Origin: an uncultured Clostridia bacterium
GTDB lineage: Bacteria; Bacillota; Clostridia; TANB77; CAG-465
DNA: 64,000 bases
NCBI GenBank assembly: GCA_944387375.1
Contig: CALXEQ010000003.1
Location: forward strand, 69,942 to 133,941
Direction of reading: 5' to 3'
Part shown: positions 5,433-62,078 of the stretch, piece by piece
Position numbering within the stretch: position 1 is the first letter of the stretch
Layout: every line of letters starts with the position of its first letter
Position numbers and translations under genes: made by a program
Notes under the pieces: generated by a model
The model's input: only the letters and a program-made list of their open reading frames with translations
Database searches by the model: none
What the model was told of the DNA's origin: nothing

Positions 5433-6377
5433 TTAATTATATTCAGAATAGACAGGATCTTCTACACTCATGTCTATTGTTCCTTCCATATTATTTCCAT
5501 TTTTTTGCATAATTCCTTTTAAAAATGACACCTTATAATTTAAATTAGAATTATTAGCAAATACTATATTAAGTTTATCATCTAAGGTAACTATTGTCAA
5601 GGAATTAGAGAAATTAACCTTAGTTATACTTCCCTCTATTTGAATGTTTTCAAACTCATTTTTTATACTATTATATACTTCTAATTTTTCTATATAAATT
5701 TCATTAATTTTTTCTCCAAATTTTACATTTTCGCCAAAAGTAAACCCTTCTACTAAAAGTTCGTCTCCTTTAGAGGATAGTTCACACTCCTCAAGCAAAT
5801 ATCCCTCATTATCTATCTTATAATACTTTCCTGTACTACTATCTAAAGCTATATACATAGGATATCTTTCTTCTACATTAATTACTATAGTATCAGGTAT
5901 TAAATAATTAAGTTTAGTATTAGCTATGTAAGGTAAATTTACATTTTTGTTTTCAGAATTTAAAAGTTGCTTAAAAATGTTTTCTCCTAGTTTTAAATTT
6001 GAATTTTGCACTATTTGCTCATCTGAATATTTTGTATTTCCTTCAACTTGTATATTTTCTAAATTAAACGTTTCTAAATTAAACAACAAATATATAAAAG
6101 CAAAAATTATAGCCAAAAAAAATACAATTTTTAAAATAGTAGTAGCTTTTACCTTTTTAGTATTTACTCTATATTTTTCCTCTTTCTCATCTAATACATT
6201 TTGATTAACTCTATTTTTTATTGACTTATTTAATCTTATATCATTATTATTTCTATTAACTTTTTTCTTTTGATTAATATTTGAATTTTTCGGTAAAGGG
6301 CGCAAAGGACCAGTACTATTTTTTAATGCTTTTTTGTTATTTTTAGTACTTGTCCTACCTTTATTCAACCTCATCAC
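5433..6377 (-). CDS. divIB: cell division protein DivIB/FtsQ (POTRA domain)
   Basis: Basic N-terminal tail, single TM, POTRA-like region. Directly follows murG; the murG stop abuts the divIB start. Confidence 0.8.
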   Translation of the reverse strand: MMRLNKGRTSTKNNKKALKNSTGPLRPLPKNSNINQKKKVNRNNNDIRLNKSIKNRVNQNVLDEKEEKYRVNTKKVKATTILKIVFFLAIIFAFIYLLFNLETFNLENIQVEGNTKYSDEQIVQNSNLKLGENIFKQLLNSENKNVNLPYIANTKLNYLIPDTIVINVEERYPMYIALDSSTGKYYKIDNEGYLLEECELSSKGDELLVEGFTFGENVKFGEKINEIYIEKLEVYNSIKNEFENIQIEGSITKVNFSNSLTIVTLDDKLNIVFANNSNLNYKVSFLKGIMQKNGNNMEGTIDMSVEDPVYSEYN

Positions 6378-19963: not shown

Positions 19964-21172
19964 GTGGTATTCGTGTTAATAAGAAAAAAATATTTAAATC
20001 AACTTATTGATGGAAAAGATCTAAATTTAATAAAAGTAATAACCGGCGTAAGAAGATGTGGGAAAAGTACATTATTATTACAATATAAAGATTATTTAAT
20101 ATCTCAAAATATCCCTGATGAAGACATTATATATATGAATTTTGAAAGTGCAAAATGGTACGATATTAAAGACTATAAAGACTTATATAATTACATAAAG
20201 AAAAATGTAAAGAATCAAAATAAAAAATATATACTGTTAGATGAAGTACAAAATGTAGAAAAATGGGAAAAAGCAGTAAATTCGCTACTTGTAGATATAA
20301 ATTCTGATATTTATATTACAGGCTCTAATGCTTATCTTCTATCAAGTGAACTTACAACTTTACTAGCAGGAAGAGTACTTACAATAAAAATATATCCTTT
20401 TTCTTATAAAGAGTTTCTTGAAGAATATTCATTTAAAAATGATGAAGATAAATTTGAAAAATTTGATAAATATTTAAAATATGGTGGAATGCCTATGATT
20501 GTAAATATGAAAGATAATGAAAATTTAATATTAAATTATCTTAGTGATTTAAAAGAAGTGGTTTTAAAAAAAGATGTTATTAATAGAAATAAAATAAAAG
20601 ATGTTGTTTTTCTAGATAATTTAATAAAATATATGTCTACAGTAATAGGTAATTTAACAACACCTAATGCTATTGCTGAATTTATGAAGAAAAATGGCAC
20701 TAATATTTCAAATGAGACTGTAGATTCATATCTAAATATGCTTGAAAATGCATATTTTATATATAGAGTTCCTAGATACGAATTAAAAGGAAAGCAACTT
20801 TTAAAAACTCAAGGTAAATATTATTTTATAGATAACGGATTAAAAAATATAATCGCTGGTATATCTTCATATGATACTGGTAGTAGCTATGAGAACTTAA
20901 TATATATTGAACTACTACGTAGAGGTTATGAAGTATATGTTGGACAATATAATGATATAGAAATAGATTTTATCGCTATAAAGCCGAATGAAATAGTATA
21001 CTATCAAGTAGCTAGAAGTATTATGGATGAAAAAGTTGAAGAAAGAGAAAAAAAATCATTACTAGCAATAAATGATAATTATAAAAAGGTAATACTAACA
21101 ATGGATAATGTAAAAAATAAGCAAATTGATGGAATTGAAGTAATAAATATAATTGATTTTCTAATGGAATAA
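19964..21172 (+). CDS. AAA+ superfamily ATPase, DUF4143 family (COG1373-like)
   Basis: P-loop GVRRCGKST, Walker B ILLDEVQ, C-terminal DUF4143-like region. Start is GTG at 19964 or 19973. Confidence 0.75.
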   Translation: MVFVLIRKKYLNQLIDGKDLNLIKVITGVRRCGKSTLLLQYKDYLISQNIPDEDIIYMNFESAKWYDIKDYKDLYNYIKKNVKNQNKKYILLDEVQNVEKWEKAVNSLLVDINSDIYITGSNAYLLSSELTTLLAGRVLTIKIYPFSYKEFLEEYSFKNDEDKFEKFDKYLKYGGMPMIVNMKDNENLILNYLSDLKEVVLKKDVINRNKIKDVVFLDNLIKYMSTVIGNLTTPNAIAEFMKKNGTNISNETVDSYLNMLENAYFIYRVPRYELKGKQLLKTQGKYYFIDNGLKNIIAGISSYDTGSSYENLIYIELLRRGYEVYVGQYNDIEIDFIAIKPNEIVYYQVARSIMDEKVEEREKKSLLAINDNYKKVILTMDNVKNKQIDGIEVINIIDFLME

Positions 21173-24492: not shown

Positions 24493-24750
24493 AAAAACTT
24501 CTCCTTTCTGATACAAGAATAAATAATTATAAAAAAACGCACATACCTGTATATAAGGAATGTACGATTATATCTAAAATATAATATATACAAAATAATA
24601 ACCACCTTAATATACAACATACCATCATATGTGCCCTTTATAACGTAAGGAATACGGCTCAGCTTACTATTAATTCAGCCTGCAACTCAGAGGTGATTTT
24701 CATATAAAACTAATCTAAATGAGCTCACACCATCCTCATCTCGCTTGATA
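24493..24750 (-). promoter_or_regulatory. candidate T-box riboswitch leader of ileS (Ile specifier AUC)
   Basis: A leader of about 250 nt containing a terminator and a partial T-box-like UUAAGGUGGU segment. It has GAAAAUCA (AUC + purine) in a possible specifier loop and AGUAAGCUGAGCC resembling stem I distal elements. Firmicute ileS genes are normally T-box controlled. The ACCGCG part of the T-box consensus was not found. Confidence 0.35.
24531..24566 (-). terminator. intrinsic terminator inside the ileS leader (attenuator)
   Basis: Minus-strand RNA CGUACAU-loop-AUGUGCG (7 bp, one G-U pair) followed by UUUUUUU, about 40 nt upstream of the ileS RBS. Confidence 0.45.
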
Positions 24751-25027
24751 TTTCATTTTATATTACTCTTCCTCGTCATAGTTTTTGTTAATTATTATTT
24801 ATTCTATCTTTTTAACTTCTATCATTATACCATATCCAAACTTTCTTGTAAAGTACTAATTTTAGCATTTGCAATTATTTATGTTTCAATTATATTTTTA
24901 AACAATTTCATAAATATTACGTTTTTATCTTTTTCGACTTTTTTAAACAAAAACTATTGCAAAGTGAAAAATCGTGTGGTATATTATAGTCATCATCTAT
25001 TTTAATACCTTTCATTTTAGATTGGTT

Positions 25028-25048
25028 CCCACTAGTTTTACTAGTGGG
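25028..25048 (+). terminator. hairpin CCCACTAGT-ttt-ACTAGTGGG
   Basis: 9-bp perfect inverted repeat. The downstream plus-strand sequence is moderately T-rich. Confidence 0.3.
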
Positions 25049-25077
25049 ACTTAATTTTAAAAATTCTCATTAAAAAA

Positions 25078-25100
25078 TTACTAGTCAATTTGACTAGTAA
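25078..25100. terminator. bidirectional intrinsic terminator TTACTAGTCA-att-TGACTAGTAA
   Basis: 10-bp perfect inverted repeat flanked by T-runs on both strands. Lies directly after the stop of the 25107-26132 gene. Confidence 0.5.
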
Positions 25101-25106
25101 TTTTTA

Positions 25107-26132
25107 TTATTCTATAATCATATTTGCATTATATTTTACATCTTCATTTAGTCTAGTTGCTGCAGCTTTATTTTCGCCAGGTTTTAATATATCTAATGGT
25201 TTAGTAACCACTTTATATTTCTTTCCATCTTTTTCAAGCTCGAATACACTTATGCTATTTTCTAAAGTTTCTTCTAAATGTCTTAATTCAGTTGTAAAAT
25301 ACATTTCTTCATCTTTTAAAAACATTCCAACTTTTTTAATAATTCTAAACATTTCTGCAATATGTTGTATATCTTCCCCAACAAATACAACTTGTGGCTT
25401 TTCTGCAAAACCAGCATCATTTTTTACAAAATTTTCGTAAAAATCTGAATATAATTGTACTTTCTCTGCAAACATATTTTGCCAATCATCATTTCTTCTT
25501 ACTACTTCAAATACAAAATCTACTTCTTTATTATCTTGTTTTAATGTAACCATTCCACCTGTTGGTTTAAATTTTACATTATATTTTTTTGAATATAGTA
25601 GTATATTAGGATTTGCTCTTACAAATGCTCCTACTTTTTGCATATATGCAATTATTACCTGATTTCCTGCAAGTTTTCTTTTTACAGCAAAAGCAGGCTT
25701 TGTATTTTCTGTAGGTTGCCATGTTGTTGGAATATTTCTTTGCTTTAATATATATGTAGCTATTTTGTCTATGCAATATGCTCTATATGAGCTTTTTCCA
25801 GTTTCACTTTGGAAAAAATATCTTGCAATAACTTTAGACTTTGTTAAATCTTCTAACCATTTTGCTACTTTAGTTTGTCTTTTTTCAACTTCGATATCAT
25901 TTAATTTGCCTCTAAGTTCAAGTACTTGTGTTACTTGTCTTGATGTAACATAACCAAACTCATTGACAACTTCTAGGGCATCAATATGAGATTCATTAAT
26001 ATATCCCATATCCATTTTAAAAACTACTTGATTTATTGATGCAAAGCCCTCTTTACCATCATATACTTTTTTCTCATCTTGCCTTACAGCAAAAGGAGAT
26101 ATAGCAGTTTTTACTTCTTTATCATTTACCAT
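25107..26132 (-). CDS. hypothetical protein (341 aa), last gene of the T4SS-like block. Possibly a replication/relaxation-type mobile-element protein.
   Basis: Strong RBS AAGGAGAGA. Has its own upstream 200-nt intergenic region. No HUH or Walker motifs found. The function call is speculative. Confidence 0.55.
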   Translation of the reverse strand: MVNDKEVKTAISPFAVRQDEKKVYDGKEGFASINQVVFKMDMGYINESHIDALEVVNEFGYVTSRQVTQVLELRGKLNDIEVEKRQTKVAKWLEDLTKSKVIARYFFQSETGKSSYRAYCIDKIATYILKQRNIPTTWQPTENTKPAFAVKRKLAGNQVIIAYMQKVGAFVRANPNILLYSKKYNVKFKPTGGMVTLKQDNKEVDFVFEVVRRNDDWQNMFAEKVQLYSDFYENFVKNDAGFAEKPQVVFVGEDIQHIAEMFRIIKKVGMFLKDEEMYFTTELRHLEETLENSISVFELEKDGKKYKVVTKPLDILKPGENKAAATRLNEDVKYNANMIIE

Positions 26133-26300
26133 TTTTCATCTCTCCTTAAATTTAATTTTGAAATTTTTTGGCCAATCTAGTATAGTTTACTAGAGATAAT
26201 TAAATATCCATTCATATATAATTATCACTAGTATTATATCTCATATGTAAACTTAATGCAACATAATAGTATAATTTATTTAAAAATCATCTTTTTATTT

Positions 26301-26333
26301 CAAAAAAAATACAATCTAGAAAACCTAGACTGT
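26301..26333 (-). terminator. intrinsic terminator after the S1-domain gene
   Basis: Hairpin acaatctag/ctagactgt (one mismatch), then UUUUUUUUG on the minus strand. Confidence 0.4.
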
Positions 26334-26336
26334 ATC

Positions 26337-27158
26337 TTAACCTATAATAATTAATTTTACCTTTTTTCTTTCAAGATTAATTCTTCTAATACTAACTAAT
26401 ACATTTTGTCCATATTCAATTCCATTTACATGATCAGCTATTCCAAGTACATTAGGTGCTATTTCAACAAACACACCTGTTTTTATTGAATTACGGACAA
26501 TTCCTTCTACAATATCTCCTTCTTTAAATTTTTTTATATTATCATCAAATGTTCCTAAAAGCTCTTTACAAGAAAGTTCTATTCTACCTGTATCTCTATC
26601 ATACTTCTTTACAAGTACTTCTATTCTTTGCCCTATTTTAAACATATCTGAAGCATTGTTTAGCATTGTATCTGACATATCATGTATTTTTAAAATACCT
26701 GTTACGCCACCACCTACATCAACAAAAGCAGCATAGTCTTTAAGTCCTACAACAACACCTCTTAATTTCATACCTGGTTTTAAATACTTATACATCCATC
26801 TTCTTACCTTAAGCTCTAATATTCTCTTAGACATAATAAGCTCAAACCCATCTTCAGTTTTTATTATTTCTTTTATACACACAGGTATTACTTTTCCCTT
26901 TTTATTTAATATAAATTTTTCTTCAACTAATCCGTCATCTCCAACAACACTAGACGCCTCATCTCTTGGAATAATAGCTTTTATATCTTTTCCAACTTTT
27001 CCAACCATATTTAAGCTTTCATCAATATCCTCAATGTACATATCTAATACTTGCTGTGATTCTTTTATTTCTTGTAAAGTCTTTTCATTTAAAACAATTT
27101 TCTTATTATCTTTTTTACTTTTTTTAATATTTTTTGAATTCTTTTTATTATTTTCCAT
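26337..27158 (-). CDS. tandem S1 RNA-binding domain protein with Lys-rich N-terminus
   Basis: Two S1-like OB segments: GMKLRGVVVGLKDYAAFVDVGGGVTGILKIHDMSD... and EGDIVEGIVRNSIKTGVFVEIAPNVLGIADHVNG... Confidence 0.7.
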   Translation of the reverse strand: MENNKKNSKNIKKSKKDNKKIVLNEKTLQEIKESQQVLDMYIEDIDESLNMVGKVGKDIKAIIPRDEASSVVGDDGLVEEKFILNKKGKVIPVCIKEIIKTEDGFELIMSKRILELKVRRWMYKYLKPGMKLRGVVVGLKDYAAFVDVGGGVTGILKIHDMSDTMLNNASDMFKIGQRIEVLVKKYDRDTGRIELSCKELLGTFDDNIKKFKEGDIVEGIVRNSIKTGVFVEIAPNVLGIADHVNGIEYGQNVLVSIRRINLERKKVKLIIIG

Positions 27159-27313
27159 AGTTTTAGTAAATTATTACCTTTTCCCTCCTATCTTATTTAA
27201 ATAATCATATATCATTATTATATAATATTTACATTTTTTATGCAATATATAATTATAATGTTTAAGAAGGAAAAAATACAAGGTAATAAATTACCTTGTA
27301 TTTTTTACACCAT

Positions 27314-28249
27314 TTACTCCTCTATAATTTTATAAGTATATTCAATTACATTTTTTACATTTACTTGAATTTTTAAGTCACTTTTATCAAAATAAAAAGT
27401 ATATATATTTGTATCTGATTGAGCATCAAAAATACAATTGTCTGAATTTAATAAAAATATCTCATTTTTATTAGATTTTATAAATTCTTTAAAGTCATGT
27501 ATGTTTCTATATTTAGTCATTTTACAATTTAAATCTAATAATTCATATGCTCTCTCTTGATTATAATTAAAATCTTCTTTAATTTGATTTAAAATATCCT
27601 CTAAATAATCTTGAAATCTTGCATTATATGCTCCAAATATGTTATTAACTTGATTTTCTATTTTATCTGGAAATTGTATTTCTACTTTCTCATCCTCTTT
27701 TAATTCAAAAACACTTTTATCATCTATATATTCTGTTGGTAATAAATTAAAAGTTTTATTAATATCATCTTGTTTTACTATCATAGAAAAGTAATTATGC
27801 TCATTAGATTTTAAATTTCTTAGATTTCCTTTTACAAAATATATATACATATTATTATCTTTATTTCTTGCAACTAAAATATTCTCTATATTTAAGTCAA
27901 AATCATCTTTATAAGTCATTAATGGCAAAATATCATTAATAAGTATATTTTTACTTTCTAGATATTCTTTATCAATTAAATTATATACATTTTGTAAATA
28001 ATAATCTTTATCATCTTGTAAAGTACTAGAATTATAACTTGTAATGCTATAATAATACTTTAAAATGCATGATTTTAATATATAGTACTCTTCTATATTA
28101 TTAATCTTTTGCAATGAAATTTTCGTTTCTTCTGTATCAGCATACTCATCAGATTTTACTATATCATCGTTCTTATCAAAAAATGCAACGGTACTTACCA
28201 CAACAATAATTATAATAATTAATATTATAAAAATATAAAATCTCTTCAT
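27314..28249 (-). CDS. membrane-anchored protein, paralog A (T4SS block)
   Basis: N-terminal TM. Shared motifs with the next gene: YFVKGNLRN/YFVKGVIRN, ERAYELLD/DRAYEYLN, EFIKSNKNE/SFIDSNKNN. RBS AAAGGAGGAG. Confidence 0.6.
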   Translation of the reverse strand: MKRFYIFIILIIIIIVVVSTVAFFDKNDDIVKSDEYADTEETKISLQKINNIEEYYILKSCILKYYYSITSYNSSTLQDDKDYYLQNVYNLIDKEYLESKNILINDILPLMTYKDDFDLNIENILVARNKDNNMYIYFVKGNLRNLKSNEHNYFSMIVKQDDINKTFNLLPTEYIDDKSVFELKEDEKVEIQFPDKIENQVNNIFGAYNARFQDYLEDILNQIKEDFNYNQERAYELLDLNCKMTKYRNIHDFKEFIKSNKNEIFLLNSDNCIFDAQSDTNIYTFYFDKSDLKIQVNVKNVIEYTYKIIEE

Positions 28250-28399
28250 ATAATCTCCTCCTTTATTAAAATTTAGATTTATTATATTAATGTATTATAT
28301 ATTTTATCACAAAAAATTTATCTAGTCAATTATGTAAACATCATGCAAATAAAAAATGGAAGAATTTATATTCTTCCATTAATTAAATTTTATTATAAA

Positions 28400-29380
28400 C
28401 TATATTAAAGATATACTATAATTTAGCTCTGAATAATTATTGCAATATAAAGATATACAATATGTATCAGTTTGATCATAGCAATCCAAAATCATAACTC
28501 CATCTTCATATCTTATTTCATATGTTGAAAATAACATAAAGTACATATTATTTTTATTAGAATCTATAAAACTCTTAAACTCATCAATTGTTTTAAATTC
28601 ATTGGATTTTGCTTGTTCATTAAGATATTCATAAGCTCTATCAATATCATAAAGTAATATTGTTTTTACATTATCAAATCTATACTCAGCAATATCTTCA
28701 ATAGTAGTCGAACTAGAACTAAATTTATTATAGTCTCTATTTTCTACAGACTGTGGTATATCAAAATTTATTTCTTCACCTTCTTTTAAACCATTAAAAT
28801 CAACATCAGCTAAATAATCTCCTAAATACACTTCAAAAGAGCTAGTTGTATTATCTAAAGTTAAAATCATATTAAAGTCTATACCATCATATGTCTCTGT
28901 ATTTCTTATAACACCTTTAACAAAATATGCAGTAACTAATCCAAAATCCTCAGGATTTTCTTCATACTTACTCAAAGAATATACTTCATATAATTCAATC
29001 TTGAAATTCTCTATATATTCTATATTAGAAGTAACATTTTCTTGAGTAATTCCAAGCTTATTAATATAATCAGGTGATAATAAATTATATGTGACATCTC
29101 TATAAAAACTGTCTGTACTATTAGGAGAAGATATTCCATTATAATACAAATAAAATTTTTGTACACAGTTTTTTACTAAATTTAAAGTAGCATATCCTTC
29201 TATTTTTTGTAATTTATTGTTTTCAGAATTTATTATCTCAACATCTGCCTCTCTTAATTCAGTATCACTATAACTGTTATCATTTTCATTAATATTACTT
29301 ACAACTTTAAATATAATTATAATAACAATTATAAAAAGCAACAATATTATTCCAAATATAATTTTTTTATTTTTATACAT
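28400..29380 (-). CDS. membrane-anchored protein, paralog B (T4SS block)
   Basis: See paralog A. Start probably ATG at 29380 (MYKNKKIIFG). Confidence 0.55.
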   Translation of the reverse strand: MYKNKKIIFGIILLLFIIVIIIIFKVVSNINENDNSYSDTELREADVEIINSENNKLQKIEGYATLNLVKNCVQKFYLYYNGISSPNSTDSFYRDVTYNLLSPDYINKLGITQENVTSNIEYIENFKIELYEVYSLSKYEENPEDFGLVTAYFVKGVIRNTETYDGIDFNMILTLDNTTSSFEVYLGDYLADVDFNGLKEGEEINFDIPQSVENRDYNKFSSSSTTIEDIAEYRFDNVKTILLYDIDRAYEYLNEQAKSNEFKTIDEFKSFIDSNKNNMYFMLFSTYEIRYEDGVMILDCYDQTDTYCISLYCNNYSELNYSISLI

Positions 29381-29396
29381 AATATTCACCAACTTT

Positions 29397-42858: not shown

Positions 42859-43002
42859 CGTGTCAATTTTAGATTAAAAATTGACGTTATCATACATATC
42901 TTAATCATTTATAAATGATTAATTCTTTTTTACTCTGGGAATTTATTCCTGGAGTTTTTTATAAAATAAAAATATCAGGATATTTCTTCCTGATATTTTT
43001 AT
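42859..43002 (+). ncRNA. candidate small RNA (~145 nt) between the M23 peptidase and SSB genes
   Basis: Bounded by the consensus promoter upstream and a hairpin plus T-run terminator (42974-42994). Contains three further inverted repeats (42862-42885, ~42901-42922, ~42945-42960). No RBS-preceded ORF. Confidence 0.3.
42974..42994. terminator. bidirectional intrinsic terminator between the convergent M23/sRNA and SSB genes
   Basis: ATCAGGA-tatttct-TCCTGAT hairpin with T-runs on both strands. The ssb stop is at 42999-43001. Confidence 0.5.
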
Positions 43003-43622
43003 TTTTCTACTTTAGCAAATTTTGATACAGAAACTTCATATGCTACTTTCTTTTCAACTTCCCCATTTTCTAATTTTTTTTCATAAGCTCTTGATTGTAT
43101 TCTACCACTTAATTTTACCAAACTACCTACTTTTAAAGTATCACAAAATTTTGCATTTCTTCCCCATAATATACATGGTATATAATCTGATTTTTTATAC
43201 GTTCTATTAACTGCTATTAAAACATCTGCTATTTCTCTTCCTAAAGGAGTTTTTCTATATACAGGTTCTTTACAAATATATCCTATCAAATTTGCATTAT
43301 TTAATGTAACTATTGTATTGTCCTCTAAAAATTCTATTTCTTTTACAAAAACAGATAACACAAGTTTATTTTTCTTTTCTCCTTGCATATTGTATGATCT
43401 AAATTGACCATTAATCTTTACTATTTTATCTACCTGAATTTTATTTATATCAACTAATCTTTCTGATATTATAACAGGTAATATATCCTCATAATTACTT
43501 AGTCTTTTACTTTTTATTGAAAACTTATAAAATTTTTCTTCGAATATTTCATGACTAAATTCAGGTTCACTAATAATTACCCCACCTATAGCTACATTGT
43601 TATTTTCCATATAATTTTCCAC
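42999..43622 (-). CDS. single-stranded DNA-binding protein with two tandem OB folds and no acidic C-terminal tail
   Basis: Domain 2 matches SSB (LIAVNRTY, ILWGRNAKF, GSLVKLSGRIQSRAYE). Domain 1 is a degenerate copy. It ends ...KFAKVEK without the D-D-D-I-P-F type tail. Confidence 0.7.
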   Translation of the reverse strand: MENYMENNNVAIGGVIISEPEFSHEIFEEKFYKFSIKSKRLSNYEDILPVIISERLVDINKIQVDKIVKINGQFRSYNMQGEKKNKLVLSVFVKEIEFLEDNTIVTLNNANLIGYICKEPVYRKTPLGREIADVLIAVNRTYKKSDYIPCILWGRNAKFCDTLKVGSLVKLSGRIQSRAYEKKLENGEVEKKVAYEVSVSKFAKVEK

Positions 43623-58879: not shown

Positions 58880-59402
58880 GGAATTCTTTTAATTTTGAGT
58901 CTACTTGTATAAAAACATCATCTTGTAATTTTTTTAATTCGTCATTTTTAAATTTTTCAAGTACAAAATCTACCATATCTTGTTTTGGATATTTAAGTCC
59001 ACCAAGTCCTATTCTAATTCTTGATATTTCTTCACTTGAAAGCATTTGTATAATATTTTTCATTCCATTATGAGTTCCTCCACTTCCTTTTTTTCTAAAT
59101 CTTATTGTACCAAATGGAATATCTACATCATCAAAAATTATAAGTATATCACTATTTTCAACTTTATACCAATTTTTAAGTGCTACTACTGCTTTTCCAC
59201 TTAAATTCATATATGTTAACGGTTTTGCAAAAATAACTTTTTCACCATTTATAACAGTTTGACCCACTAAACAATTGCAACTACTTTTAGTTATTTCAAC
59301 ATTATATACTGATGCTAAATAATCAACTGCCATCCATCCGATATTATGTCTAGTTTTATCATATTCTTTACCAGGATTTCCAAGTCCTACAATAATTTTC
59401 AT
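58869..59402 (-). CDS. pth: peptidyl-tRNA hydrolase
   Basis: MKIIVGLGNPGKEYDKTRHNIGW... Confidence 0.9.
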   Translation of the reverse strand: MKIIVGLGNPGKEYDKTRHNIGWMAVDYLASVYNVEITKSSCNCLVGQTVINGEKVIFAKPLTYMNLSGKAVVALKNWYKVENSDILIIFDDVDIPFGTIRFRKKGSGGTHNGMKNIIQMLSSEEISRIRIGLGGLKYPKQDMVDFVLEKFKNDELKKLQDDVFIQVDSKLKEFLDN

Positions 59403-59576: not shown

Positions 59577-62078
59577 TTGATAGAAAATCTTTTTAAAAAA
59601 TTACATATTTCGGTTAAACCAGAAAAGATTTTAACATATATACTTTATGCTATTAGTATAGTGGTAGCCTTTATATGTTTAGGTCAAATCTTAAGTTTGA
59701 TTGCTGGAAATATACATATGAGTGATAATATATCTATTGATTCTCCAATACCTTATATTATTTCTTTACTATTTATTATTCCAGCACTAGCATTTTCATA
59801 TTTTGTAAACTCAGGAATAGCAAAAAATGATGATGATAAAGTTAAAATGTTTATTGTTACATTCATTCTTTTAGCAATTCCAGTTTTATATGCTATCAGT
59901 GGAACAATAAATTGGATTTGTTGGAATGTATTAGAAGCACTTCCAAAATATGAGGAAGTATTATCTACATACCCACAATTTATTCCACCTGCTGTTAAAG
60001 CACTAACATTATTTATTCCATTCATATCTATAACATATATTTTAGACTATATCTTATCTATATATAATAGTGAAGATTTATTAAAATCTATTGCAGGATT
60101 TGTGGGACTTACTGTTAGTTCTGGTGGAAAGAAAAATGGAGCATTTGACTGTGATACTGTAATAGGTGCTGCAAAAGGTACTTCTGTTCCTATTGTTGTA
60201 CCTGAGAAGAAGCGTTATGAAGCAACTTTAGTTCAAGGTGCTACTGGTACTGGTAAAACAGCTACTGTTTTACTACCTATGAGTGCACTTGATCTTGAAA
60301 AGAAATTCTTCTTTAGAGAATATGCTAAAAAAATTGGATATTCTATGCTAAAAAAAGGTATTGCTTATATGAATGGACCATATGATAACAGATATATAAA
60401 CAGAAACTTTTCATTAAATATGTTAAAACCAAAGACAGGAATGGAAGAACAATTTGAAGATGAGGTAAGACCTTTAGTACAATATGTAGATAATGCAACT
60501 GGAAATATTACATATAGAAATTTAGGTATAACTATAGTAGAAAATGATGGAAACTTTATATCTCAGTTTATTGGTGTAGCCAAAAATTTTGATATAGATG
60601 TATTATCTATAGATCCTGCTAGCCCTGAAACAACTCTTAGTATTAATCCATTTGCTATTCCAGATCCTGCAAAAGCAGCTTCTATTGTAGCGGATGTTCT
60701 TATGGCGATGTATGATCAAAAAGGAAGCAGTGATCCATTCTTTACACAAGTAACTATAGATGCTTTCCAAAACTTATCTATATTACTTAAGGAAATGTAT
60801 CCTGTTCTTCATAATGGTGAAATGGCATCTTTAGAAGACATGCTTGAACTTTTATACAACTTCGATGCTGTTGAAGAAATGACTGAAGAAATGAAAAAAA
60901 TTCCTGAACTAGAACAAAAATATAAATTATTAATAAAATACTTTGAAAAGAATTTCTATAAACCAAGTTTAAATATAAATGGATATGAAATTCCAGGAAC
61001 TCGTGGTAGCGGTAGAAAAGATACTGAAAAATATCTATATGGTGCTATTACTCAACTTAACAATTTAATACGTAACCCTGGACTTAAAGCTGCTCTTTGT
61101 GGTAAAGAAAACGTAATTGACTTTGATAAAGCCTTAGCAAATGGTAGTGTAATAACAGCTTGTTCAAGAAAAGGTGATCTTGGTATTATACAAGCAAAAG
61201 CATTTGGTATGTTCTTTATATTACAATTCCAAGATGCAGTACTTAGAAGAAAAGGAAATGAAGAATCTAGAACACCTCATTTCTTATATATAGATGAATT
61301 TCCTGAATATATTACAAAAGACATGGAAGTTATGTTTACACTATTTAGAAAATATAGATGTGGTGTTACAGTTGCAATTCAAAACTTATCTCAACTTGAA
61401 AAATCTGGTCATTCTTATTACAGGCAAACTGTACTTGCAAATACTAAGACACAAATAGTATTTGGTGATACTGTAAAAGAAGACAGTGAATATTGGAGTG
61501 AAGCTTTTGGTATGGAGAAAAAAGTAGATTCTTCTACTTCATATAAAATTGATCCTACAGAAGGATTTAAAGCTGAGCCTACAAAAATAAATGTTAAAGA
61601 TAAAGAAAGAATTAAAAAGCATAAACTTGCAGAACTTGGATTTGGATCAATGTTTTACAAGACAAAAACTGCTAATGGAAAAACTGTATTTGGAGAAGGT
61701 AAAACATCATTCTTGGCAGATAAATACAAACAACATCAAAATACACTTATGTTTAATTTTGAAAAATATATGATGTCTAAACCTGATGCTCCAACTATAA
61801 CTATGAATGATAGTGACAATTCAACTAGTGATGATAACCTATTTGGAATAAACACTACTAATAGATTAAAAGAAGAAATTAAGAAAAATGTAACTGCTTC
61901 AAATGTTAATAACAATCCTGATTTTATTTCTACAGGTACAGATTATTCTCAAGATGATAGTACAAATGATATTGAAATCGTATTTGAAAATAATGATGTA
62001 ACACTAGATCAACAAGGAAATGGTGGAGCTATTACAGAAAACTATGAATCACCAATTATAAAAAGAAATAAAAATTAA
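59577..62078 (+). CDS. type IV coupling protein (VirD4/TraG/TraD-like T4CP), orphan
   Basis: N-terminal TM helices. Walker A LVQGATGTGKT, Walker B-like LYIDEFPEY, VAIQNLSQLE motif. Long Asn/Asp-rich C-terminal tail. TTG start at 59577, with an alternative ATG further downstream. Confidence 0.75.
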   Translation: MIENLFKKLHISVKPEKILTYILYAISIVVAFICLGQILSLIAGNIHMSDNISIDSPIPYIISLLFIIPALAFSYFVNSGIAKNDDDKVKMFIVTFILLAIPVLYAISGTINWICWNVLEALPKYEEVLSTYPQFIPPAVKALTLFIPFISITYILDYILSIYNSEDLLKSIAGFVGLTVSSGGKKNGAFDCDTVIGAAKGTSVPIVVPEKKRYEATLVQGATGTGKTATVLLPMSALDLEKKFFFREYAKKIGYSMLKKGIAYMNGPYDNRYINRNFSLNMLKPKTGMEEQFEDEVRPLVQYVDNATGNITYRNLGITIVENDGNFISQFIGVAKNFDIDVLSIDPASPETTLSINPFAIPDPAKAASIVADVLMAMYDQKGSSDPFFTQVTIDAFQNLSILLKEMYPVLHNGEMASLEDMLELLYNFDAVEEMTEEMKKIPELEQKYKLLIKYFEKNFYKPSLNINGYEIPGTRGSGRKDTEKYLYGAITQLNNLIRNPGLKAALCGKENVIDFDKALANGSVITACSRKGDLGIIQAKAFGMFFILQFQDAVLRRKGNEESRTPHFLYIDEFPEYITKDMEVMFTLFRKYRCGVTVAIQNLSQLEKSGHSYYRQTVLANTKTQIVFGDTVKEDSEYWSEAFGMEKKVDSSTSYKIDPTEGFKAEPTKINVKDKERIKKHKLAELGFGSMFYKTKTANGKTVFGEGKTSFLADKYKQHQNTLMFNFEKYMMSKPDAPTITMNDSDNSTSDDNLFGINTTNRLKEEIKKNVTASNVNNNPDFISTGTDYSQDDSTNDIEIVFENNDVTLDQQGNGGAITENYESPIIKRNKN

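Follow-up and report, generated by a model that had tools for sequence, protein, structure and literature searches.

A three-barrel S1-domain protein beside a relaxase-like gene: a candidate relaxosome accessory in clostridial conjugation systems

Why would a protein built from S1 domains be encoded within a type IV secretion system (T4SS)? The question is raised by a stretch of DNA of 64,000 nucleotides from an uncultured Clostridia bacterium (GenBank assembly GCA_944387375.1, contig CALXEQ010000003.1, positions 69,942 to 133,941), the whole of which we call the window. The gene in question, which we call S1 together with its orthologs, lies on the minus strand at 26337-27158. A preliminary description of the window had offered two possible functions: the protein could bind the transferred single-stranded nucleic acid, or it could regulate the operon post-transcriptionally. 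Gene linkage and fold point, with moderate confidence, to S1 as a single-strand nucleic-acid-binding accessory of the DNA-processing (Dtr, or relaxosome) module in a family of clostridial conjugative T4SSs. On this evidence, the first of the two functions is favoured over the second. The tightest partner of S1 is a relaxase-like protein, the gene for the type IV coupling protein (T4CP) lies next to that partner, and the pair persists far from the genes for mating-pair formation (Mpf). It is because of these three observations that a role with the transferred single strand appears preferable to operon regulation.

The protein and its predicted parts are as follows (aa, amino acids; pLDDT, predicted local distance difference test).

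26337-27158, minus strand: S1-family gene encoding 273 aa, with three S1/OB barrels after a disordered, Lys-rich tail
27093-27158, minus strand: codons for the Lys-rich disordered N-terminal tail (residues 1-22); pLDDT below 50 at residues 1-19 of the AlphaFold2 model
26829-27047, minus strand: predicted OB barrel 1 (residues 38-110), degenerate and S1-like; modelled strands 38-45, 51-55, 59-63, 90-101 and 104-110
26571-26768, minus strand: predicted OB barrel 2 (residues 131-196), a canonical S1 domain; 60.1 bits with PF00575 against a cut-off of 22
26346-26513, minus strand: predicted OB barrel 3 (residues 216-271), a divergent S1 domain; clear as a barrel in the AlphaFold2 model, Pfam E 0.019 when scanned alone

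The open reading frame (ORF) is genuine and starts with ATG. The Pfam S1 profile (PF00575) matches residues 127-198 with an E value of 2.8e-16, so the S1 nature of the protein, as first described, is upheld. When the C-terminal unit is scanned alone it reaches only E 0.019, and the N-terminal unit alone gives no Pfam match. In an AlphaFold2 model computed from 39 family sequences (mean pLDDT 86.4), residues 1-19 are a disordered tail, and besides a short helix there are beta-barrels that span residues 38-110, 131-196 and 216-271. The number of domains must therefore be raised from the two of the preliminary description to three. The five-stranded OB beta-barrel is recovered in the predicted structure by both AlphaFold2 and Foldseek. 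With the model as query, the best Foldseek match is ribosomal protein bS1 (9gut_B; 260 aligned columns, E 1.9e-18), and PNPase S1, GSP13 and Tex S1 are matched as well. According to the model, S1 is a protein of three S1-type OB folds, one canonical and two degenerate. In barrel 3 the residues G214, G228 and F230 are invariant across the family alignment.

Barrel 1 is not found in all members. A human-gut clade (L149-L172, for example L158 at 5502-5987) encodes a 161-aa S1 with two barrels, corresponding to the second and third, which ends 13 bp before the gene for the relaxase-like partner; the T4CP gene follows downstream in convergent orientation. Because this short variant does without barrel 1, the barrel is dispensable in the human-gut lineage.

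The Lys-rich tail, also part of the preliminary description, is present in the window protein (MENNKKNSKNIKKSKKDNKK). The isoelectric point is 9.9 for residues 1-36 and 9.25 for the whole protein, which is thus basic. The tail is clade-specific: plasmid-borne and distant S1 relatives have a different N-terminus with a 'PEG(W)' motif. Since the genome moreover has a GC content of about 26%, we rejected the idea that the tail is a conserved signal with a function; it may simply reflect the genome's composition.

Two established protein families were considered for S1 and rejected. The best ribosomal protein S1 (rpsA) model of NCBIfam, the Firmicute model PRK06676, scores 89.9 bits against a cut-off of 368, and the remaining NCBIfam rpsA models all stay far under their cut-offs. 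Residues 12-269 are collinear with positions 75-345 of this profile (profile length 391), covering only three repeats with the first domain missing. Low score, missing domain and the occurrence of the family on plasmids led us to discard ribosomal protein S1 as its identity. Regulators of the CvfD/GSP13 type were discarded as the family of S1 because the scores are under cut-off (NF040579, 47.7 bits against 117; PRK08059, 40.1 against 148) and because those proteins have a single domain, compared to three domains and 273 aa here.

Two further observations concern the start of the gene. In the region of the ATG (27159-27200) a Shine-Dalgarno sequence is absent at normal spacing, and an AGGAGGG motif lies upstream of the ATG with a spacer of about 20 nt. 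In some relatives, S1 is annotated as 13 aa longer than in the window.

The gene that follows S1 is its conserved partner. We refer to its product as RR.

25107-26132, minus strand: Replic_Relax/MOB_C-type relaxase-like protein RR, 341 aa, with a predicted winged helix-turn-helix and a putative restriction-endonuclease-like core

This is what the preliminary description had called the putative terminal gene. It is indeed terminal in the block, and the identity we propose for it is that of a candidate relaxase. Against the Replic_Relax profile (PF13814), the window protein scores 14.8 bits, under the threshold of 25.3. Orthologs with 50-74% identity score above it (P0383, 26.5 bits; P0388, 26.2; L073, 30.2; L075, 26.1), and the plasmid homologs discussed below are sub-threshold or give no match. 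The AlphaFold2 model of RR has a mean pLDDT of 65, with values of 80-90 in the core (residues 150-320). Across the family, N157, R212, E253 and H257 are invariant. Searching the PDB with the RR sequence returned nothing, and no RR homolog was present in the phage collection. As far as sequence comparison goes, RR is a putative relaxase of the Replic_Relax/MOB_C family.

Replic_Relax has been placed in the PD-(D/E)XK superfamily and is named for both replication and relaxation (PMC3424549). PF13814 represents the MOB_C relaxase class of CONJscan (PMC5357655; PMC12857230). The prototype of this class, TraX of pAD1, combines a winged helix with a restriction-endonuclease-like core, and no covalent DNA intermediate has been detected for it (PMC12857230). 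Both genes of the pair are under purifying selection: in comparisons with unsaturated dS, the ratio of non-synonymous to synonymous substitution rates (dN/dS) is 0.05-0.13 for S1 and 0.02-0.09 for RR.

How constant is the pairing outside the window? A genome scan yielded S1-centred loci from 74 species-level genomes of uncultured Clostridia (including Clostridium sp. CAG:465, CAG:921 and CAG:1219). Compared with the window protein, their S1 identities lie between 40% and 94%. RR was counted when it lay at most 2.5 kb downstream of S1, and a T4SS was counted when at least two of its recognisable proteins were encoded upstream on the same strand. Of the loci that could be evaluated by these rules, 51 of 63 have RR downstream of S1 and 53 of 62 have T4SS genes upstream of it. 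In the reciprocal scan of metagenomes, centred on RR, an S1 gene is found directly upstream of RR at 40 of 62 evaluable loci (20 of 26 in the main clade). Hence an S1 gene recurs in orthologous T4SS blocks, where the preliminary description proposed to look for it, and the pair with RR recurs on three clostridial plasmid families too. The association is not universal, though, as one locus (L113) and two clades show.

What follows RR varies by species and can be ileS, the gap operon, a Wadjet system or the gene for a giant adhesin. Because the neighbourhood past RR differs between species in this way, we place the end of the block at RR, with S1 inside. The position first described for S1 is confirmed: the terminal gene (25107-26132) lies on one side and the two membrane paralogs (27314-28249 and 28400-29428) on the other. 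Directly past RR we noticed a complete Wadjet (JetABCD) anti-plasmid system in one relative and, in another, a gene for an adhesin of 1822 aa with AgI/II, MucBP and SpaA domains (L003, 12602-19199; L005, 12605-18073). The block edge appears to be an insertion hotspot.

The coupling protein is the third member of the arrangement.

59577-62078, plus strand: T4CP, 833 aa; Pfam TraG-D_C E 3.2e-11, T4SS-DNA_transf E 4.4e-10

In the window this gene adjoins pth (58869-59402). It lies about 15 kb beyond the pgi-side end of the block and about 32 kb from S1, with housekeeping genes between. T4CP, pth, trpS and obg are kept as a unit there (53-62 kb) while the Mpf genes, S1 and RR are located elsewhere; an RNase J-like gene is also found near the T4CP gene. 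In relatives, the parts come together. At five loci (L051, L053, L054, L056 and L069) the order is contiguous: Mpf genes, S1, RR, T4CP on the opposite strand, and then pth, trpS and obg. A T4CP homolog is directly beside the S1-RR pair at these loci and at L073, L074, L076 and L077. Among the RR-centred metagenome loci, T4CP is beside RR in 30 of 55 that could be evaluated.

The most distant members (L073-L077) have only 12-32 bp between S1 and RR. In the four of them with a long enough contig (L073, L074, L076 and L077), the pair is beside T4CP; in L076 and L077 it is also beside pth and away from the Mpf genes. The contigs of L076 and L077 are binned as 'Ignavibacteriales' and 'Deltaproteobacteria', yet their gene order S1-RR-T4CP-pth is the clostridial one, and their proteins share 44-50% identity with those of the window. 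The binning is probably wrong.

When clusters are split, S1 remains with one of the two halves. In L073-77 and L149-172 it accompanies RR and T4CP; in L020, L027, L037, L042 and L044 it accompanies the Mpf genes. Because S1 stays with one half on splitting, it behaves as expected of a component at the junction of a transfer system. The S1-RR pair is intact even when it is far from Mpf genes, as in L073-L077 and on plasmids. Sequence divergence follows the same partnership. Across 55 species, the identity of S1 correlates with that of RR at r = 0.90, compared to r = 0.48 for VirB4 and r = 0.07-0.38 for the envelope proteins.

The pair also occurs on plasmids of named species. Searching the plasmids of PLSDB with RR retrieved nine records in three groups, of which one record per group was examined (NZ_KT897275.1, loci L092 and L096-L098; NZ_CP107023.1, L090; NC_017998.1, L091). 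No close S1 homolog was found in the plasmid collection; the plasmid S1 partners surfaced only through the RR gene. On Clostridium beijerinckii p1, Thermoanaerobacterium pMU3262 and Clostridium botulinum p12/29 (which carries bont/E1), a protein of 288-291 aa annotated as 'S1 RNA-binding domain-containing protein' is encoded, with a gap of 18-22 bp from the end of its gene to the RR homolog that follows. Aligned with the window S1, these proteins are collinear and share 21-26% identity, and the RR homologs have 22-26% identity.

On p12/29, homologs of VirB4 (40%), of the 478-aa protein encoded upstream of VirB4 in the window (26%, E 2e-24), of a 352-aa block protein, of the block's single-strand-binding protein (SSB) and of T4CP (34%) are also present, and the 478-aa homolog occupies the same position as in the window. 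The T4CP gene of p12/29 spans the origin of the record and is absent from the PLSDB gene table. A T4CP homolog with 35% identity is encoded on C. beijerinckii p1, and the Thermoanaerobacterium plasmid is typed MPF_T. Outside plasmids, the S1-RR pair is found on a 202-kb metagenome contig (P0200; RR 31% identity), and on a further contig (P0159) the partial ORF after the S1 gene is an RR homolog. Outside the clade, on these plasmids and the P0200 and P0159 contigs, protein identities range from 21 to 35%. MOB-suite classifies all nine RR-bearing plasmids as 'non-mobilizable'; evidently, its relaxase models miss the RR relaxase-like protein.

The genes to which S1 and RR are attached in the window form a T4SS block on the minus strand, from about 25.1 to about 44.5 kb, with pgi and ileS as the neighbours at its two ends. 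From the far end, its order is a TraX-family protein, an SSB, an M23 peptidase (on the plus strand), three TrbC/VirB2-like pilins, PrgI/VirB3, a 478-aa protein and VirB4. Then follow proteins of 501, 352, 187 and 278 aa, a hydrolase of 1031 aa with lysozyme and CHAP domains, the two membrane paralogs, S1 and finally the 341-aa gene of RR. The parts identified are listed here.

42999-43622, minus strand: SSB-family protein at the far end of the block; Pfam SSB E 1.5e-20; 75-80% identity in L028
40385-41071, 41200-41565 and 41741-42103, minus strand: three TrbC/VirB2-like pilin genes; Pfam T4SS_pilin and TrbC
39978-40367, minus strand: PrgI/VirB3-like gene; Pfam PrgI
38541-39977, minus strand: 478-aa T4SS-block protein upstream of VirB4; no family match
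36516-38510, minus strand: VirB4-type ATPase; Pfam P-loop_TraG, DUF87 and AAA_10
27314-36529, minus strand: variable envelope part with the 501-, 352-, 187- and 278-aa proteins, the hydrolase and the two membrane paralogs
29397-32492, minus strand: 1031-aa lysozyme and CHAP hydrolase; Pfam CHAP and Phage_lysozyme

VirB4, T4CP and a relaxase-like gene, the set expected of a conjugative T4SS of monoderm type, are all encoded in the window, spread over about 37 kb with housekeeping genes between. No integrase was seen among the scanned window ORFs. The arrangement suggests a conjugation system that is fixed in the chromosome, inherited vertically and rearranged, and not a compact integrative and conjugative element (ICE).

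Within the block, conservation is uneven. The cytoplasmic parts are well kept in relatives: by tblastn, VirB4 identities are mostly 74-93%, falling to 43% in L073, the most distant relative; the ranges are 50-98% for RR and 40-94% for S1. The envelope proteins (the hydrolase, the 278-, 352- and 501-aa proteins and the membrane paralogs) have about 22-50% identity in most relatives. This suggests diversifying selection or cassette exchange of the surface components. The membrane paralogs are 28% identical to each other (E 7e-23), and neither they nor the 278-, 187-, 352- and 478-aa proteins have a match in Pfam or NCBIfam. At L007 (72-9770; IleS 98% identical), the place of the membrane paralogs is taken by two giant ORFs, one of 1318 and one of 1871 aa.

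Close to the block, on the opposite strand, lies a gene for an AAA_14/DUF4143 ATPase (19964-21172, plus strand). Its region, 20-22 kb, is the one place close to the block that lacks a negative GC skew. A homolog with 43% identity follows RR in L102. The gene may be an inserted element.

Is S1 part of an operon in this block? The sequence around the gene contains three predicted structures, the first two of which bear on this.

27271-27306, minus strand: terminator-like hairpin between a membrane paralog and S1; perfect 17-nt arms, -17.2 kcal/mol, z -5.8, followed by six U
26298-26338, minus strand: terminator-like hairpin and T8 run just past the S1 stop; -15.2 kcal/mol, z -3.8
26188-26233: 20-nt inverted repeat, 56-101 nt upstream of the RR gene; 90% complementary, -16.5 kcal/mol, z -3.65

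Because a hairpin followed by a T run is predicted on both sides of the gene, S1 in the window looks like a separate, monocistronic transcription unit. The location inside a T4SS operon, as first described, thus holds for the gene cluster and, by these terminator-like brackets, not for the transcript. The hairpin after the S1 stop is the same one in L007 and L008. In many relatives, S1 starts 0-40 bp after the preceding gene.

The inverted repeat at 26188-26233 is the same in L001, L008, L013, L014 and L019, and in other clades this position is taken by repeats of other sequence. The repeat of the window is a candidate for an operator or for an element of the origin of transfer (oriT). Two hairpins downstream of RR (25015-25061 and 25073-25105) and this repeat all have ACTAGT cores. 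An Rfam scan near the S1 gene found nothing besides the T-box leader upstream of ileS (24627-24788, minus strand; RF00230, E 7e-17; its 80.1 bits fall slightly short of the gathering score, 93).

From linkage and fold, we propose the following course of events. RR would recognise double-stranded oriT through its winged helix, and its restriction-endonuclease-like core would nick or melt this site. With two or three OB barrels, S1 would grasp the single strand that is displaced. By analogy, it might also contact RR and stimulate or stabilise it, as HelP and OrfL/OrfM do for relaxases of the MOB_T class. The nucleoprotein would then be passed to the coupling protein and on to the VirB4-type channel. 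The S1/OB barrel is a classic single-strand-binding module.

A bolder version of this mechanism would be that S1 and not the relaxase pilots the DNA: S1 would grip the nicked strand non-covalently, dock on T4CP and be transported along through the channel. For MOB_C relaxases a covalent DNA adduct is not observed (PMC12857230). We consider this version improbable. If true, it would mean a new, adduct-free recruitment of substrate, both in a system fixed in the chromosomes of a whole clade of gut Clostridia and on clostridial toxin plasmids that are typed as non-mobilizable.

Several points weigh against S1 as a relaxosome accessory. All loci were seeded on S1 or RR and not on T4SS blocks. S1 domains are better known as RNA binders. 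By its terminator-like brackets, the window copy would be transcribed on its own. The classical PD-(D/E)XK residues are not invariant in the RR family and no catalytic triad can be mapped from the alignment; because of this, RR may not be an active nickase. S1 is also not obligatory, being absent at 6 of the 26 RR-centred loci of the main clade. Furthermore, in two clades RR and T4CP are flanked upstream by rpoA-rplQ or by pseudouridine synthase genes, and no S1 is adjacent. The clearest case of absence comes from three metagenome contigs of one species (L112, L113 and L127). Their RR is 100% identical and gap and pgk are 99-100% identical, and the interval before RR differs. L112 has the hydrolase, S1, a 359-aa gene and RR, and L127 has the hydrolase, S1, three genes and RR. 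L113 has the hydrolase, a membrane paralog, a 363-aa gene and RR, and no S1 there. The interval from hydrolase to RR is a hypervariable cassette zone from which S1 can be missing. On the plasmids, finally, the pair stands among genes of replication and recombination (DUF3854, Rad52/ERF, dnaN and SSB), a setting that fits a role in replication equally well.

These points lead to other explanations. S1 might be a post-transcriptional regulator that binds the mRNA of transfer genes (T4SS transcripts or the relaxase leader) and controls its stability or translation. CvfD, GSP13 and YabR are small S1 proteins that act post-transcriptionally, and ribosomal S1 acts on weak Shine-Dalgarno sites. The best matches of our protein in structure and sequence (bS1, PNPase, GSP13 and YabR) and the mainly RNA-binding nature of S1 domains are in line with such a function. 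So are the conserved hairpin-forming inverted repeat in the probable 5' leader of RR and about nine species in which the Mpf block ends with S1, genes such as ftsY, pepF or hflX come next, and there is no RR within 10 kb. However, the most conserved neighbour of S1 is a DNA-processing protein and not the Mpf operon. The pair with RR is retained where the Mpf genes are 15-40 kb off or absent from the locus, and the models for CvfD and GSP13, which are single-domain proteins, reach 47.7 bits against 117. We regard regulation as an unlikely reading.

The replication genes around the pair suggest another function, in which S1 is a helper of replication or maintenance: RR would nick or melt an origin, S1 would coat the strand for rolling-circle or strand-displacement replication, and conjugation would be secondary. 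In ICEs, relaxase-driven replication and transfer are not mutually exclusive. The Pfam family name of RR covers both replication and relaxation (PMC3424549), and the neighbours on the plasmids and on the 202-kb contig (DUF3854, Rad52 or ERF annealases, dnaN, SSB and PAPS-reductase-like genes) would suit it. Against it speaks the chromosomal clade, in which the system has a fixed place next to pth-trpS-obg or ileS, neither integrase nor replicon genes are in sight, and the constant partners of the pair are T4CP and the Mpf genes. We regard a primary role in replication as distinctly unlikely. It is highly improbable, at last, that S1 is a housekeeping paralog, a truncated translation factor like ribosomal S1 in a genome of low GC content (about 26%), neighbour to the T4SS by chance and with no role in transfer. 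Some databases do label the family 'ribosomal protein S1', and the S1 gene is missing at the locus in some strains. The nearest S1 relatives outside the clade (29-35% identity), Oscillospiraceae proteins of about 308 aa with a conserved C-terminal extension, occur in housekeeping contexts: three such loci (L087-L089; P0433, P0491 and P0412) have neither RR nor T4SS. But the score with the Firmicute rpsA model is 89.9 bits against 368 and the first domain is missing. The flanks change (ileS, gap operon, Wadjet, adhesin gene) while the place of S1 is constant, and beyond the uncultured clade, named species of Clostridium and Thermoanaerobacterium have the pair on plasmids.

Because these Oscillospiraceae relatives sit in housekeeping contexts, the transfer-linked S1 proteins are one branch of a broader clostridial 'short S1' family. 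These proteins of about 308 aa have the same three-barrel layout; the consensus of their extension is YF..G.hD.WxYTP......eTxF (alignment A1, columns 301-356), and twice their gene is divergent from a DUF951 gene.

A relaxosome accessory of this kind would matter for Gram-positive conjugation and for research on clostridial toxin plasmids. It would give a handle on how adduct-free relaxases deliver DNA to the coupling protein. If S1-RR were recognised as a Dtr module, mobility predictions could change for toxin plasmids such as the BoNT/E1 plasmids of C. botulinum, now 'non-mobilizable'. A clade of uncultured gut Clostridia, moreover, has this system fixed in the chromosome, and there its surface parts evolve fast.

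In sequence and fold, the best match among known proteins is bS1 (the four-domain Firmicute rpsA, PRK06676), with which S1 is collinear over three S1 repeats. The context differs: S1 in the window belongs to a conjugation module and not to translation, and its family is also found on plasmids. CvfD, GSP13 (YugI) and YabR share with S1 a canonical S1 domain and their occurrence in Firmicutes. In contrast to S1, they are single-domain proteins of about 120-140 aa and have no link to genes of mobile elements.

As a system, the block resembles the chromosomal T4SSs of Patescibacteria. These are of the monoderm type and have VirB2-like pilin arrays, PrgI/VirB3, VirB4, a VirB6-like protein and very variable surface components (PMC12102498). 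No relaxase class is commoner in them than MOB_C, and t4cp frequently lies close to the gene for the relaxase (PMC12102498). Both systems appear to be chromosomally fixed, with variable surface parts. Patescibacteria are a different phylum, however, and an S1 partner is unmentioned in their description (PMC12102498); the clostridial system keeps RR and T4CP in most genomes. Like the MOB_C relaxases TraX of pAD1 and MobC of CloDF13, RR is predicted to have an N-terminal winged helix and may have a restriction-endonuclease-like core, and it is encoded beside T4CP and T4SS. For MOB_C systems, no S1 partner appears in the literature searched or in the 2025 review of T4SS nomenclature (PMC12857230). 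That review lists as auxiliaries only ribbon-helix-helix proteins and the OB-fold proteins HelP, OrfL and OrfM (PMC12857230). The literature search also found no paper that ties proteins with S1 domains to relaxases, relaxosomes or T4SSs, or that ties TANB77/CAG-508 to a T4SS. An S1-type OB-fold relaxosome accessory paired with a MOB_C-like protein is probably previously undescribed.

Relaxosome accessories are almost all ribbon-helix-helix proteins, and those with OB folds were shown only recently and for MOB_T elements alone. HelP of ICEBs1 and OrfL/OrfM of ICESt3 are OB-fold auxiliaries that bind DNA weakly and non-specifically, stimulate nicking by a non-HUH relaxase and are essential for transfer (PMC12614216; PMC12857230). 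S1 corresponds to them in being an OB-fold protein encoded beside a gene for a putative relaxase in a DNA-processing module. By analogy of role and fold only, the likeness extends to a relaxase-like partner that is also non-HUH and to a T4SS of monoderm type. In a Pfam scan of S1 with E values up to 10, only S1-type families were found and none that relate to HelP, OrfL or OrfM, with no direct sequence comparison made. The architecture is also different: S1 has three tandem barrels in one chain of 273 aa, whereas theirs are two separate proteins that form a complex. The partner of S1 is Replic_Relax/MOB_C-like, whereas theirs is MOB_T. If the role proposed for S1 is true, the clostridial pair would represent a second, independent recruitment of the OB fold into a relaxosome.

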